A DNA stretch of 64,000 nt, from the NCBI GenBank assembly GCA_964574595.1, contig CAZNOF010000008.1, positions 15 through 64,014 on the forward strand. The letters are read 5' to 3'. The notes beneath the pieces are model-generated. The model saw only the letters and a list, made by a program, of their open reading frames with translations. It was not told the DNA's origin and did no database searches. This DNA is from an uncultured Pseudomonadales bacterium. Lineage in GTDB: Bacteria > Patescibacteriota > Microgenomatia > UBA1400 > PJMF01. Position numbers and translations under genes: made by a program. This document shows positions 3,187-64,000 of the stretch, piece after piece. How positions within the stretch are numbered: the stretch's first letter is position 1; the number at the start of each line of letters is the position of its first letter.

Positions 3187-4206
3187 ATGAATACACTTCC
3201 TCAATTTGTTGCTGATTTTTTTCAAGGTAAAACCGTTTTAGTCACTGGTGGCGCTGGATTCATTGGCTCTCACTTGTGCGAAGCACTGGTCTCAGTCAAT
3301 GCCAACGTGATTGCCGTCGATAACTTTTTGACCGGACACATTGAAAATATTGATCATTTAAGAAGTCAATCGATTAAAAACTTTCGATTTATTCAAGGTG
3401 ATGTCTCACAGGAGCCCGAGAAATATTTGAAAATCTCCACAGTGCCTGATGTGGTTCTCCACTTTGCCTCCCCAGCTAGTCCTCCACGCTATCAGCAGTT
3501 CCCGATTGAGACATACTCAGTCAATAGTTTTGGCACGCATCATTTACTGCGTTACTTAATGGCCAGAAATCCTAAAGCTATTTTTCTCTATGCTAGTACT
3601 TCAGAAGTGTACGGTGATCCACAGGTCCATCCACAAGTAGAAACGTATTGGGGAAATGTGAATCCAAATGGCATTCGTTCTTGTTATGACGAAGCGAAGC
3701 GATTAGGTGAAACGATTTGTGGCGTGCATGCCAGAAACTTTCATTTCGATGCTCGAATTGTCCGCATTTTCAATACTTACGGTCCCCGAATGGATTTACA
3801 TGATGGTCGGGTAATTCCTAATTACATTGATGCAGCAATTCATCGCCAACCGCTAGCCATTTTTGGCGATGGCAAACAGACTCGATCTTATTGCTATGTC
3901 ACGGATTTGGTTGAAGGTATTTTGAGATATGCCGCGACACCAAACTTAGGTGGTCAAACAATTAACATGGGAAATCCTGGCGAGTTTACGATTGAAGAAA
4001 CTGTCCATGTCATGCAAGAAGTGATTGGTTCACTTGCACCACAGCTCAGTCCATTAACGACCGTCTCCCAACCACTCCCTAAAGACGATCCTGTTCGCCG
4101 AAAACCAGATATCACCAAAGCCAACCAACTTTTGGGCTGGCACCCGGGCATCTCATTTAAAGAAGGTTTAGCTGAAACAGTTCGTTATTACCTAGCTAGG
4201 CGCTAA
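3187..4206 (+). CDS. UDP-glucuronate decarboxylase family (UXS / ArnA C-domain-like extended SDR)
   Basis: VLVTGGAGFIGSHL Rossmann motif, YDEAKR (YxxxK) and RIFNTYGPRM signature shared by UDP-xylose synthase and the ArnA decarboxylase domain. Confidence 0.75.
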   Translation: MNTLPQFVADFFQGKTVLVTGGAGFIGSHLCEALVSVNANVIAVDNFLTGHIENIDHLRSQSIKNFRFIQGDVSQEPEKYLKISTVPDVVLHFASPASPPRYQQFPIETYSVNSFGTHHLLRYLMARNPKAIFLYASTSEVYGDPQVHPQVETYWGNVNPNGIRSCYDEAKRLGETICGVHARNFHFDARIVRIFNTYGPRMDLHDGRVIPNYIDAAIHRQPLAIFGDGKQTRSYCYVTDLVEGILRYAATPNLGGQTINMGNPGEFTIEETVHVMQEVIGSLAPQLSPLTTVSQPLPKDDPVRRKPDITKANQLLGWHPGISFKEGLAETVRYYLARR

Positions 4207-61459: not shown

Positions 61460-62623
61460 ATGCCCAACCAAGAACAGCGTTCCTATACTCCAGAACGCCA
61501 ACCTATCCCATTCGAGCAAATCGCCTTGGACAATCAAGATATCCGATTAAGCAGCCATCCTAACTCGCCTGATATTATCAAGCAGTACACGCAGCTCCAA
61601 GATCCCTTATTAAGTGGCTTAGACATACCCTCTGCCGATTTATTTCTCCAGCTTCCATATAACGATCAACTCAAGCTTGCTGAACGCTTCATGGAAAGTA
61701 ATCGCAAAAGGAAATTAAGAGGCTTAGAAAAGGATGCCTTTTATCAGCGGATTGCCTCTAATGAAACAGAAATGAGGGTTGAACAAGCCGCCTCACCCTT
61801 AGCCAGACCGTTTAAACTGTATGATCGGAACATGGTTGGCAAAGAATATCGAGCTATATACGATTTTGATTTACCAATCACCACGGAAGAGTCTGTTACT
61901 CGAATTCATTACCGAAGTTTGCAAATGCTAACAGGTGGTTCTGAGATTAGTTATTTTACGTTACGCAAAATTACGCCGAATGGTGTCGATGAATTAGATC
62001 TACTGAACCCAAATCAAAGTGTGTTTGTTTTTGAAGGCAATGCCGGAAATAGCGCGCAGTACTATCGCCAAAATGTTTACCTGAACCAGGCACCGTTGTC
62101 ACTCAGACAGTTAACCATCTTCAAGCATGAGGCTCACCACTTGCTGAACGAGGGTGCTAATGATGTTCACCACTTTTTAGGTTCAGCAAAAATGAAACTG
62201 TTACTCCTTTTCAAAGATATCCCTTTTACACAACAAACTCAGGACGAGCTCCTAGATATGTTAAAGAAGAATTACAAAGAGTGGTACTTGGCACTCTTAG
62301 AACCCTTCACAATCGCGGAAGCCGTCAGCATGTATCAAGATGAAGTGACTGCATCTGCAGGAGCATCAAATGAAATGGCAGACGTGCTAGAATTTCTGGG
62401 ACCAGAGTTTCAACCACTCCAAAAAGATGTAGACTTATTACTGGCCGACTCACTTTCTACCTACCTGCTTGGTTTTCAGTATGTGATCGGAAAATGCTTG
62501 CTGCCACAGAGGTATCTTGAGCTGACTGTACAGGAGCGACAGCGAATCGCCGAAATCAAAGCTAATTTGGCGAAGCAATCTGAGAAGAGTAAAAAAAGCA
62601 TGATTAATCAATCTGAATATTAA
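61460..62623 (+). CDS. hypothetical protein with HExxH motif (387 aa)
   Basis: IFKHEAHHLLNEG contains HEAHH. No TM segments. Otherwise unrecognised. Confidence 0.5.
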   Translation: MPNQEQRSYTPERQPIPFEQIALDNQDIRLSSHPNSPDIIKQYTQLQDPLLSGLDIPSADLFLQLPYNDQLKLAERFMESNRKRKLRGLEKDAFYQRIASNETEMRVEQAASPLARPFKLYDRNMVGKEYRAIYDFDLPITTEESVTRIHYRSLQMLTGGSEISYFTLRKITPNGVDELDLLNPNQSVFVFEGNAGNSAQYYRQNVYLNQAPLSLRQLTIFKHEAHHLLNEGANDVHHFLGSAKMKLLLLFKDIPFTQQTQDELLDMLKKNYKEWYLALLEPFTIAEAVSMYQDEVTASAGASNEMADVLEFLGPEFQPLQKDVDLLLADSLSTYLLGFQYVIGKCLLPQRYLELTVQERQRIAEIKANLAKQSEKSKKSMINQSEY

Positions 62624-62744
62624 CCCACCTCTATTAGCAGTCTCTAGTCTTGAGTGCTAATATCAAACAGTATCAATACACATCAGAAACTGCTAATTAA
62701 TATCAAACATCACTATATCGCGATAGCTCGCTGACATTTTATTT

Positions 62745-62912
62745 ATCCCGTGATATCATTCATCTATTACGTTGATCGTTTGGCACACGGGAGTAATACA
62801 AAAAGTGAAAGAGGCCCGATGGTCATCGGGCAAGTAGGGTGGAACCGCGATTCAAATAGATTGAACCGTCCCTACAGTTCGTAATTACGGATTGTAGAGA
62901 CGGTTTTTTTGT
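62745..62912 (+). promoter_or_regulatory. T-box riboswitch leader (glycine-specific candidate) controlling glyQS
   Basis: T-box consensus AGGGTGGAACCGCG at 62836-62849 with a UGGA bulge (complements tRNA UCCA). Antiterminator pairing gtaggg(62834-39)/ccctac(62870-75). Mutually exclusive terminator 62866-62910. Candidate specifier GGC+A at 62782-62785 next to the helix cccgtg/cacggg. Stem III gcccgat/atcgggc. Confidence 0.6.
62866..62910 (+). terminator. intrinsic terminator of the T-box leader
   Basis: ccgtccctacag...ttgtagagacgg stem (one mismatch) followed by TTTTTTT at 62904-62910. Confidence 0.6.
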
Positions 62913-62933
62913 ACCGTCTCGGAAAGGATGCAG

Positions 62934-64000
62934 ATGTCTGCTCCAACCTTAGATCAACTCAGTTCTTTGTGTCGTCGCCGTGGCTTTGTCTACCCGACTT
63001 CAGATATTTACGGCGGTCTTGCCAATTCTTACGACTACGGTCCAGTTGGCGTAGAGTTACTTCGCAACATCAAAAACTTGTGGTGGCAAACGTTCATTCA
63101 CGGCCGAACCGACATGGTCGGTCTTGATTCGCAAATTTTACTGCATCCAGAAACTTGGGTGGCTTCCGGACACGTTGGTTCCTTTTCTGATCCATTAGTA
63201 GAAGATAAAGTGTCTAAGAAGCGCTTTCGAGCTGATCATTTAATAGAAGCTTGGATTGGCAAGCAAAAAGATCCAGCCCAGTTCCCTACTGTGGAAAATA
63301 TGAAAATCGATGAGATGGCGGCGTTCATTAAAGAACATCACATTATCAGCCCTGATGGTAATGAACTGACCGATCCGAAAAGCTTTAACTTGCTCTTTGA
63401 GTCGTCAATTGGTGTAGTAGCGGGCGAAAAATCGAAAGTCTACCTGCGAGGTGAAACTGCTCAAGGTATTTTTTCTGATTTCAAACCCATTTTAGACTCC
63501 AGTCGTGTTCAGTTACCTTTTGGTGTGGGACAGATCGGTCGGAGTTTCAGAAACGAAATTACGATGGGTCAATTTATCTTCCGAACCATTGAGTTCGAGC
63601 AAGCTGAAATTGAGTACTTCTTTGATCCTACAAAAATGGATTGGGCTAAGTTAATGAAAGATTGGCAAGCTAACATGTGGTCATTCATTACTGAGACCTT
63701 GGGGATTCAGGAAGAGCACCTTCGCTGGCGCCAACACACTGACAAAGAACGCAGTCACTACAGCAAAGATACCTATGATTTGGATTACCAATTCGCATTT
63801 GGTTGGAAAGAGCTGTGGGGTATCGCCTATAGAACTGATTACGACTTAAAACAACATATGCAGTTCTCTGGGAAGAGTTTGGAGTACACCGACCCGGTCA
63901 CGGCTGAAAAGATGGTGCCTCATGTCATTGAGCCAGCACTAGGTCTGAATCGAGCATTCTTAATGGTCCTGTCTGATAGTTTCTGGATTGATGAAGAGAA
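62934..64000 (+). CDS. glyQS: glycine--tRNA ligase (class II, alpha2 GlyQS type), 5' part; continues beyond window end
   Basis: Frame not in ORF track (no stop in window). MSAPTLDQLSSLCRRRGFVYPTSDIYGGLANSYDYGPVGVELLRNIKNLWW...GIAYRTDYDLKQH. An alternative in-frame ATG lies at 62928. Confidence 0.85.
   Translation, partial: MSAPTLDQLSSLCRRRGFVYPTSDIYGGLANSYDYGPVGVELLRNIKNLWWQTFIHGRTDMVGLDSQILLHPETWVASGHVGSFSDPLVEDKVSKKRFRADHLIEAWIGKQKDPAQFPTVENMKIDEMAAFIKEHHIISPDGNELTDPKSFNLLFESSIGVVAGEKSKVYLRGETAQGIFSDFKPILDSSRVQLPFGVGQIGRSFRNEITMGQFIFRTIEFEQAEIEYFFDPTKMDWAKLMKDWQANMWSFITETLGIQEEHLRWRQHTDKERSHYSKDTYDLDYQFAFGWKELWGIAYRTDYDLKQHMQFSGKSLEYTDPVTAEKMVPHVIEPALGLNRAFLMVLSDSFWIDEE

Follow-up and report, generated by a model that had tools for sequence, protein, structure and literature searches.

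The DNA analyzed here is a 64,000-nucleotide (nt) stretch of contig CAZNOF010000008.1, called the window throughout; positions are those of the window and features lie on its plus strand. The 5′ part of glyQS (62934-64000) encodes an alpha2-type glycyl-transfer RNA (tRNA) synthetase (GlyRS), recognized by its Pfam tRNA-synt_2b domain, and the gene then exits the window; its homologues, up to 95% identical, are named glycyl-tRNA synthetase or glycine--tRNA ligase. We conclude that the leader of this gene is very probably a tRNA-Gly-sensing T-box transcription attenuator of reduced architecture, with an ultrashort Stem I that carries the specifier in its terminal loop. The anatomy of the sequence, its conservation, the covariation of its helices, purifying selection, and the folding energetics carry this conclusion. 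The original prediction, made from the sequence of the window, had placed a T-box riboswitch in front of glyQS in a putative candidate-phylum genome, and this reading is supported: the regulated gene is of the alpha2 GlyRS type, and the genome belongs to the Patescibacteria (Candidate Phyla Radiation, CPR).

The T-box core that had been predicted is present as an exact 14-mer, AGGGTGGAACCGCG, at 62836-62849. Even with one mismatch allowed, the 64 kb contain no second match, and 100 shuffles contain 0; the 14-nt T-box consensus with its UGGNACC bulge, AGGGUGGNACCGCG, matches the window exactly, with 0 matches expected by chance. The UGGA named in the prediction lies in the bulge UGGAACC (62840-62846, 7 nt), between the two helices of the antiterminator (62834-62875): A1, in which GUAGGG (62834-39) pairs with CCCUAC (62870-75), and A2, in which 62847-55 pairs with 62861-69. 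The antiterminator is defined by the Rfam alignment, folding energy, and pair counts. Its competitor is an intrinsic terminator (62863-62910), a hairpin of 19 bp (62863-62906, inverted repeat I1) that runs into U7 (62904-62910, coordinates read off the sequence by eye) and shares, in its 5′ strand, nucleotides 62863-75 with the 3′ strands of A2 and A1. Every part of the proposed switch, the GUAGGG/CCCUAC helix, the overlapping hairpin, and the U7 run, is therefore in place. The folding energies are –26.2 kcal/mol for the terminator, which is the minimum free energy (MFE) structure, and –13.2 kcal/mol for the antiterminator, which would make the off state the default, as in known T-boxes.

On the 5′ side of the antiterminator stands Stem III (62814-62831, inverted repeat I6), in which GCCCGAU pairs with AUCGGGC around the loop GGUC and which is followed by AA (62832-33). 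It is preceded by a single-stranded, purine-rich linker, CAAAAAGUGAAAGAG (62799-62813, 15 nt), read from the sequence, that ends in AAGAG, the RRRNG motif flanking Stem III, where relatives have AAAG(U/A)G (RRRNG, Stem III, and the AA motif are used as defined in PMC7778990). The linker cannot hold a Stem II or IIA/B because it is too short.

Stem I (62765-62798) is a single small hairpin, identified by the MFE fold of 62766-62878, by covariation, and by its recurrence in 10 other leaders. Its C-stem pairs 62765-70 with 62793-98 (5-6 bp); next come a three-nucleotide bulge, GUU (62771-73), sheared pairs G74-A92 and A75-G91, and U76-G90 (positions abbreviated to their last two digits), an arrangement that fits the consensus of a kink-turn (K-turn) at the base of Stem I. 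Above it, an NC helix of 3 bp, CGU (62777-79) with ACG (62787-89), closes the 7-nt terminal loop UUGGCAC (62780-86), so that 62766-62797 reads AUUAC-GUU-GA-U-CGU[UUGGCAC]ACG-G-GA-GUAAU. Only this loop lies between the two strands of the hairpin, and a distal platform for the tRNA elbow, found in every transcriptional T-box characterized so far, is missing. The glycine specifier GGC with its following purine A (62782-62785) sits in the loop, at the position that has GGC in other members. A candidate GGC-A specifier had been proposed at these same nucleotides, and it proves to lie in a loop whose codon, GGC or GGA, is kept across some 19 homologous leaders. Stem I had also been called short, which is correct but understated, as it is of the ultrashort type with a terminal-loop specifier. 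The MFE fold of 62766-62878 consists of this miniature Stem I, Stem III, and the antiterminator, and the aptamer as a whole measures ~100-115 nt.

A promoter lies immediately 5′ of Stem I. A promoter scan gave a –35 box, CTGACA (62731-62736), and an extended –10 box, TGaTATCAT (62751-62759), with a 17-nt spacer between CTGACA and TATCAT, TG before the –10 box, and 10/12 matches; the –10 box is also conserved in relatives. The same arrangement, (C)TGAC(A/T) and TGnTATNAT, occurs in five related loci (L201, L203, L206, L207, and L208), and a –10-like box, often extended (TGnTAnnAT), is found a few to ~20 nt 5′ of Stem I in every leader of the short class. From its distance of ~7 nt to the extended –10 box, we infer a transcription start near A62766. 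The upstream open reading frame (ORF) stops at 62623 and the glyQS ATG begins at 62934, so the 310 nt previously given as the leader is the length of the intergenic gap, and the transcribed leader is probably ~168 nt (62766-62933). The palindrome TATCGCGATA, which had been singled out for folding along with Stem I, lies at 62716-62725 instead of 62715-62724; it sits 5′ of the –35 box, probably outside the RNA, does not belong to the riboswitch, and is non-significant alone (1 match vs 0.93 expected at up to one mismatch). At the other end of the leader, the Shine-Dalgarno sequence AAAGGA (62923-28) and the start codon (62934-36) together occupy 62923-62936, the start being the same as that called for P0001 of L201; the Shine-Dalgarno sequence is outside the terminator and unpaired in both conformers.

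Standard annotation does not report this element. At its gathering score, Rfam finds only a tRNA-Gln in the window and no T-box, and it finds no T-box on 8 related leaders; detection of the class by RF00230 required E-value mode. The RF00230 search that the original prediction had suggested, run on 62500-63000 with permissive filters, gives a significant match (E = 5e-6) whose 34.3 bits fall below the gathering score of 93. In the alignment Stem III, the T-box, and the antiterminator are placed at high posterior probability and only the 3′ half is confident, while the Stem I portion is stretched implausibly into the upstream ORF. Thus, the 3′ half is canonical and the 5′ half lies outside the family model, and the score is only 34 bits because Stem I is almost wholly absent. 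Relatives score 32-44 bits and canonical Clostridia controls 97-99. With the class this far below the cut-off, pipelines that apply the gathering score miss it, and so presumably do databases built on RF00230, TBDB included, which was built with the Rfam model plus a class II model limited to Actinobacteria. In place of RF00230 we used R1, a covariance model made from 11 K-turn-class leaders with explicit structure, which scores the window at 114.8 bits. A match to the DnaX frameshift element at 62833-62908 (14 bits, E = 1.4) was dismissed as chance.

About 19 distinct leaders of the short design were found upstream of GlyRS, mostly in Patescibacteria. They share one order of parts: –10 box, very short hairpin, linker, Stem III, T-box with antiterminator, and terminator with U run. 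Within the set, 11 leaders share the full Stem I pattern of C-stem, 3-nt bulge, GA, N, helix, loop with GGC, helix, N, GA, and C-stem; the terminal loop has the consensus YUU(U)GGCAA, and the linker is usually purine-rich and ends in AAAG(U/A)G. The closest GlyRS relatives in the GTDB genome collection come from Patescibacteria metagenome-assembled genomes (MAGs) labeled Pacebacteria (placed within Minisyncoccota in the NCBI taxonomy), Paceibacterota, Roizmanbacteria, Dojkabacteria, and Curtissbacteria, and remoter ones from Fibrobacterota, Desulfotignum, and Clostridia. Contigs of the nearest homologues (95-77% GlyRS identity) supplied L201, L203, L206, L207, L208, L209, and L210. A pattern scan of metagenomes with TTGGCA-N35-65-GGGTGGAACC was too loose, and 6 of its 120 loci were real T-boxes upstream of GlyRS, 4 of them short (L088, L089, L149, and L200) and 2 canonical; R1 found no further members among 35 Patescibacteria loci. 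In a rough neighbor-joining tree of GlyRS, carriers are spread over the Patescibacteria clade, interleaved with non-carriers; in the subclade of the window itself, 8 of 8 members have the element, and L149 and L200 branch outside the Patescibacteria clade. This distribution would fit an old element that has often been lost.

To measure covariation, we used a covariance-model alignment, plain MAFFT alignments of the leaders having misplaced the Stem I and Stem III columns. Across 12 leaders, 94.1% of cells form a standard pair, compared to 71.3% in the shuffle control (a value as high as the observed one came up in 0 of 500 shuffles) and 34-45% with partners displaced by 1-3 columns, and both sides of the pair change in 18 of 25 cases over all helices (C-stem 4/5, NC helix 2/3, Stem III 6/6); these counts are biased toward the structure, as the alignment was fitted to it with the training sequences included. 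Compensatory changes can also be read from the raw sequences. Between the window and L201, the C-stem goes from UUAC/GUAA to UUGC/GCAA (A-U to G-C), and Stem III goes from GCCCGAU/AUCGGGC to ACCCGCC/GGCGGGU. The UGA and GAG of the K-turn strands are invariant in the 11 leaders, and UGGA is present in all class members. The riboswitch is 85% identical to that of L201 and 66-73% identical to those of L203 and L206-L208, as against 59% and ~43%, respectively, at four-fold-degenerate sites of glyQS. The leader is thus more conserved than synonymous sites, which indicates purifying selection on it. Within Stem I, the loop is the most conserved part: nearly all members have GGC as the specifier and L206 has GGA, both glycine codons, and a purine follows it in all members but one. 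The 7-nt loops (the window, L201, L208, L149, and L200) read U-U-GGC-A-N, which by analogy would resemble an anticodon loop with U33 and R37.

These patterns bear on the possibility that the element is a decaying relic, that is, a canonical glyQS T-box that has lost its distal Stem I and persists as a constitutive leaky terminator without tRNA sensing. Such decay would account for the absence of the two tRNA-contacting modules of other T-boxes, for the outright loss of the element in most related genomes, and for the low Rfam score. However, the short Stem I is itself conserved, with its K-turn and glycine codon intact and with compensatory changes in both helices, and the leader evolves more slowly than synonymous sites. 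The same reduced design moreover persists across GlyRS lineages of just 50-75% identity, and a relic would not retain GGC or GGA in the loop. We therefore regard decay as unlikely.

Conservation of the loop also speaks to what is sensed. If only the discriminator end were read, any uncharged UCCA-ended tRNA would suffice, and the Stem I hairpin would be structural or protein-binding by way of its K-turn, with no decoding. The isolated ultrashort Stem I of the ileS system indeed binds tRNA very weakly, and a K-turn could recruit an L7Ae-family protein, as noted in the same work (PMC7583486). Yet YUU(U)GGCAA is the most conserved stretch of Stem I and changes only to another glycine codon, and its placement relative to the K-turn and the T-box core is that of the canonical specifier, so we judge sensing of the discriminator alone quite unlikely.

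Could Stem I instead be longer than we have drawn it? A Specifier-Loop-type Stem I might form through the inverted repeat I2 (62737-62752 with 62786-62801) or through hairpins in 62632-62697, given a promoter further upstream. I2 is 16 nt long and 81% complementary, with GGC-A at the 3′ edge of its internal loop; the MFE fold of the whole intergenic region draws on upstream sequence; and 62632-62735 is conserved in L207 and L208. However, the 5′ arm of I2 overlaps the conserved –10/spacer region and its pairing is not kept in L201, and we rejected it, together with the MFE fold of the full 310-nt region, whose long-range upstream pairings are not conserved and overlap the promoter. The conserved upstream block is missing in L201, L203, and L206, all of which have the T-box. 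Similarity between the window and L201 starts at the –35/–10 promoter, and upstream of it identity drops to 38%, a random level, the sequences there being unrelated because the neighboring genes differ. In L001, L015, and L024, only 79-103 nt separate the end of a 180-amino-acid (aa) upstream ORF from the T-box core; with a protein-coding ORF or a promoter so near in relatives, a long Stem I would not fit. Platform motifs are not found either: the distal-loop motif GGUGNRA occurs in 12 of 13 canonical controls and in 1 of 20 short leaders, where it is coincidental and lies on a helix strand, and it is absent from the window leader. Taken together, a longer Stem I is very unlikely.

Translational control in the window is the least probable of the alternatives, close to negligible: L200 seems to have a hairpin that sequesters its Shine-Dalgarno sequence and no U-run terminator, and the T-boxes with an ultrashort Stem I described to date act on translation (10.1101/2023.02.28.530422), but the 19-bp hairpin of the window runs directly into U7, its Shine-Dalgarno sequence at 62923-28 is unpaired in both conformers, and a hairpin with a U run follows the antiterminator in 18 of 19 leaders, as judged by eye. 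The exception is L200 itself (plus strand of a metagenome contig, ~2400-2590), in which the loop is UUGGCAU and the hairpin CCUAAAU/AUUUAGG covers an AGGA Shine-Dalgarno sequence 6 nt before the ATG. L200 looks like a translational version of the minimal design.

We propose the following mechanism for the T-box attenuator. The GCC anticodon of tRNA-Gly would pair with the GGC of the Stem I loop in a loop-loop contact. When the tRNA is uncharged, its 3′ UCCA would pair with UGGA and stabilize the weak antiterminator against the strong terminator, allowing RNA polymerase to read through into glyQS; charged tRNA could not pair with UGGA, and transcription would stop at U7. Recognition would then amount to three G-C pairs, four acceptor-end pairs, and stacking. 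U73 is the usual bacterial tRNA-Gly discriminator, and UGGA would fit U73. On balance, we lean toward the view that this is a natural minimal T-box, in which a kinetically controlled decision is made by two short Watson-Crick contacts with the tRNA, one through the anticodon-loop-like hairpin and one through the NCCA end, without elbow contact or a Stem II clamp.

Several points weigh against a functional attenuator of this kind. Transcriptional T-boxes are said to need the elbow-binding platform, and a truncated Stem I without Stem II binds tRNA at barely detectable affinity (PMC7583486); since the platform and Stem II are both missing here, a functional element would be unexpected. A T-box core is found just 5′ of glyQS in 8 of 35 Patescibacteria representative genomes, and an element present in those only must be dispensable. 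The score with RF00230 lies below its gathering threshold, and the covariation counts carry the bias described above. We infer the transcription start, tRNA binding, and antitermination from sequence, and tRNA scans of the window and of the fetched loci (50 loci) found no tRNA-Gly.

Beyond the core of the leader, a further feature lies just past the U run. The segment ACCGUCUC (62913-62920, inverted repeat I7) can pair along its whole length with GAGACGGU (62897-62904), the 3′ strand of the terminator, in a hairpin of –13.8 kcal/mol. Visual inspection shows a comparable complement after the terminator in L201, L002, L024, L034, L015, and L001 and none in L203, L207, and L026. Of note, we postulate that it might hold the terminator strand away in the read-through RNA or might act as a 5′ stabilizer after processing.

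Individual relatives vary the design. In L206 (~3574-4000) the specifier is GGA, not GGC (CUUGGAAA), and ~270 nt of extra sequence lie between the terminator and the glyQS start. At L210/L211 (~2816-2950), the 3′ strand in L210 carries an extra hairpin, CUACGCCGUAG, after the helix and ahead of the GA of the K-turn; in L026 (~2040-2190), Stem I and a long Stem III are separated by an added hairpin of ~45 nt that may be the counterpart of Stem II. L014 (~2700-2990) carries tandem TATAAGGTTTA-like units between the T-box terminator and glyQS; its membership in the class is doubtful, with 19.9 bits from R1, an atypical loop (GUUGGAU) in which GGA is shifted, and 388 nt between its core and the beginning of the GlyRS match. 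About 2 kb 3′ of glyQS in two MAGs of Pacebacteria type, we found adenosylcobalamin (AdoCbl) and AdoCbl-II riboswitches at Rfam gathering level (L004 6245-6343 and L005 6254-6382), so other riboswitch classes exist in the lineage. Many of the loci L001, L006-L012, L015-L018, L022, L027, L030, and L031 are titled “uncultured Gammaproteobacteria” or “Pseudomonadales”, and L024 is titled “Limisphaerales”; the GlyRS proteins of these oddly titled MAGs are 53-73% identical to that of the window and cluster with Patescibacteria, and the names of the records look unreliable.

Gene order around the element differs between close relatives. Comparing 61460-62623 of the window to 5336-10000 of L201, whose GlyRS is 95% identical, we found that in L201 three minus-strand genes separate glyQS from the homologue of the 387-aa ORF of the window: two small ORFs and a synthetase of AspRS/AsnRS-like type that carries a tRNA_edit domain. 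The protein of the ORF directly 5′ of the leader in the window has no identical entry on record. These genes are not in the window, which places a rearrangement breakpoint right at the T-box promoter. The neighboring AspRS/AsnRS-like gene in relatives has no T-box at E <= 0.01. In the window, a non-coding block lies 5′ of the T-box promoter (62632-62735) and is 59-63% identical in L207/L208 vs ~43% at synonymous sites. Within it are an inverted repeat, ATTAGCAGTC/GAGTGCTAAT, for which the relatives show a compensating change, a second CTGCTAAT, two copies of TAATATCAAACA at 40-nt spacing, and GCGAT-N2-CTCGCTGAC, which continues into the –35 box. The block is not part of the T-box, as it is missing from L201, L203, and L206, and it looks operator-like. 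Further upstream, 1635-49108 is rich in envelope and glycosylation genes, with at least 5 PMT_2/PMT-family glycosyltransferase paralogues, two PTPS_related membrane proteins, one Polysacc_synt_3 protein, and one UDP-glucose dehydrogenase, and many large ORFs of the window have no Pfam match. No other aminoacyl-tRNA synthetase was found among the large ORFs of the window, which is therefore uninformative on T-boxes of other genes.

Reviews distinguish two kinds of T-box: in the transcriptional kind, a long Stem I holds the elbow of the tRNA, and in the translational kind, Stem I is short and relies on Stem II. The short class joins the shortest type of Stem I to the lack of Stem II and an intrinsic terminator. 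If functional, it challenges the need for either the elbow platform or Stem II in a transcriptional T-box, and it would support the published idea that the all-G-C codon-anticodon duplex of glycine can stand alone. An aptamer of this size would be an attractive minimal system for structure work and for engineering tRNA-responsive switches. The leaders also document a conserved cis-regulatory RNA in Patescibacteria, whose regulation has been described as virtually unknown (PMC11665869); if our reading is true, tRNA sensing is a native regulatory mechanism in this group.

A search of the open-access literature for T-boxes in combination with Patescibacteria, CPR, Saccharibacteria, or Microgenomates/Parcubacteria yielded no pertinent report, which does not by itself prove the class unpublished, and in the literature searched we did not find the combination of a terminal-loop specifier with a glycyl, Stem II-less, terminator-type T-box. 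Much of the window element is nevertheless familiar from the canonical glycyl T-boxes of Bacillota (glyQS/glyS of B. subtilis, G. kaustophilus, and O. iheyensis), for which the Clostridia loci L046 and L050 served as our controls. Like them, it regulates GlyRS, and a purine follows its GGC (or GGA) specifier; it has a basal K-turn in Stem I whose UGA...GAG strands are homologous (in Clostridia, e.g., CAC-AAU-GA ... G-GA-GUG); and it has a purine-flanked Stem III, the exact 14-nt sequence, the UGGA bulge, and an antiterminator opposed to a terminator with a U run. As in the Clostridia leaders, the specifier lies ~50 nt from the T-box core and there is no Stem II or IIA/B. Characterized glycyl T-boxes likewise do without Stem II while keeping the AG bulge and apical loop, and the suggestion has been made that, with so strong a GGC:GCC duplex, Stem II is not needed (PMC11404447). 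The difference lies in distal Stem I. Canonical Clostridia leaders place ~85 nt of it, including AGAGA and GGUGNRA, between the strands of a 4-bp helix, where the short leaders have 2-4 nt. Unlike its canonical counterparts, the window element has no S-turn, upper helix, AG bulge, or distal loop (the elbow-binding double T-loop platform); with everything distal to the specifier missing, the specifier comes to lie in a terminal loop of 7-9 nt. Stem I is thus ~33 nt in the short class vs ~90-100 nt in canonical glycyl T-boxes, and the host belongs to Patescibacteria, not Bacillota.

The nearest parallel for Stem I is found in the actinobacterial ultrashort (US) Stem I ileS T-boxes of M. tuberculosis, M. 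smegmatis, and N. farcinica, a class defined, along with its translational nature, in 10.1101/2023.02.28.530422. A terminal-loop specifier is known only from these translational, Stem II-dependent ileS T-boxes, which, like the window element, hold the specifier in the terminal loop of Stem I and make no elbow contact (10.1101/2023.02.28.530422; PMC10651847). In the US ileS T-boxes, however, Stem II's S-turn and the IIA/B pseudoknot are essential for tRNA binding, and the window has a 15-nt linker in their place. Likewise, control in those leaders is translational, through a sequestrator of the Shine-Dalgarno sequence, whereas the window combines an intrinsic terminator with a free Shine-Dalgarno sequence. 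Finally, the US design has been reported only for ileS and tRNA-Ile, and in the window it is joined to a GGC specifier and a GlyRS gene.

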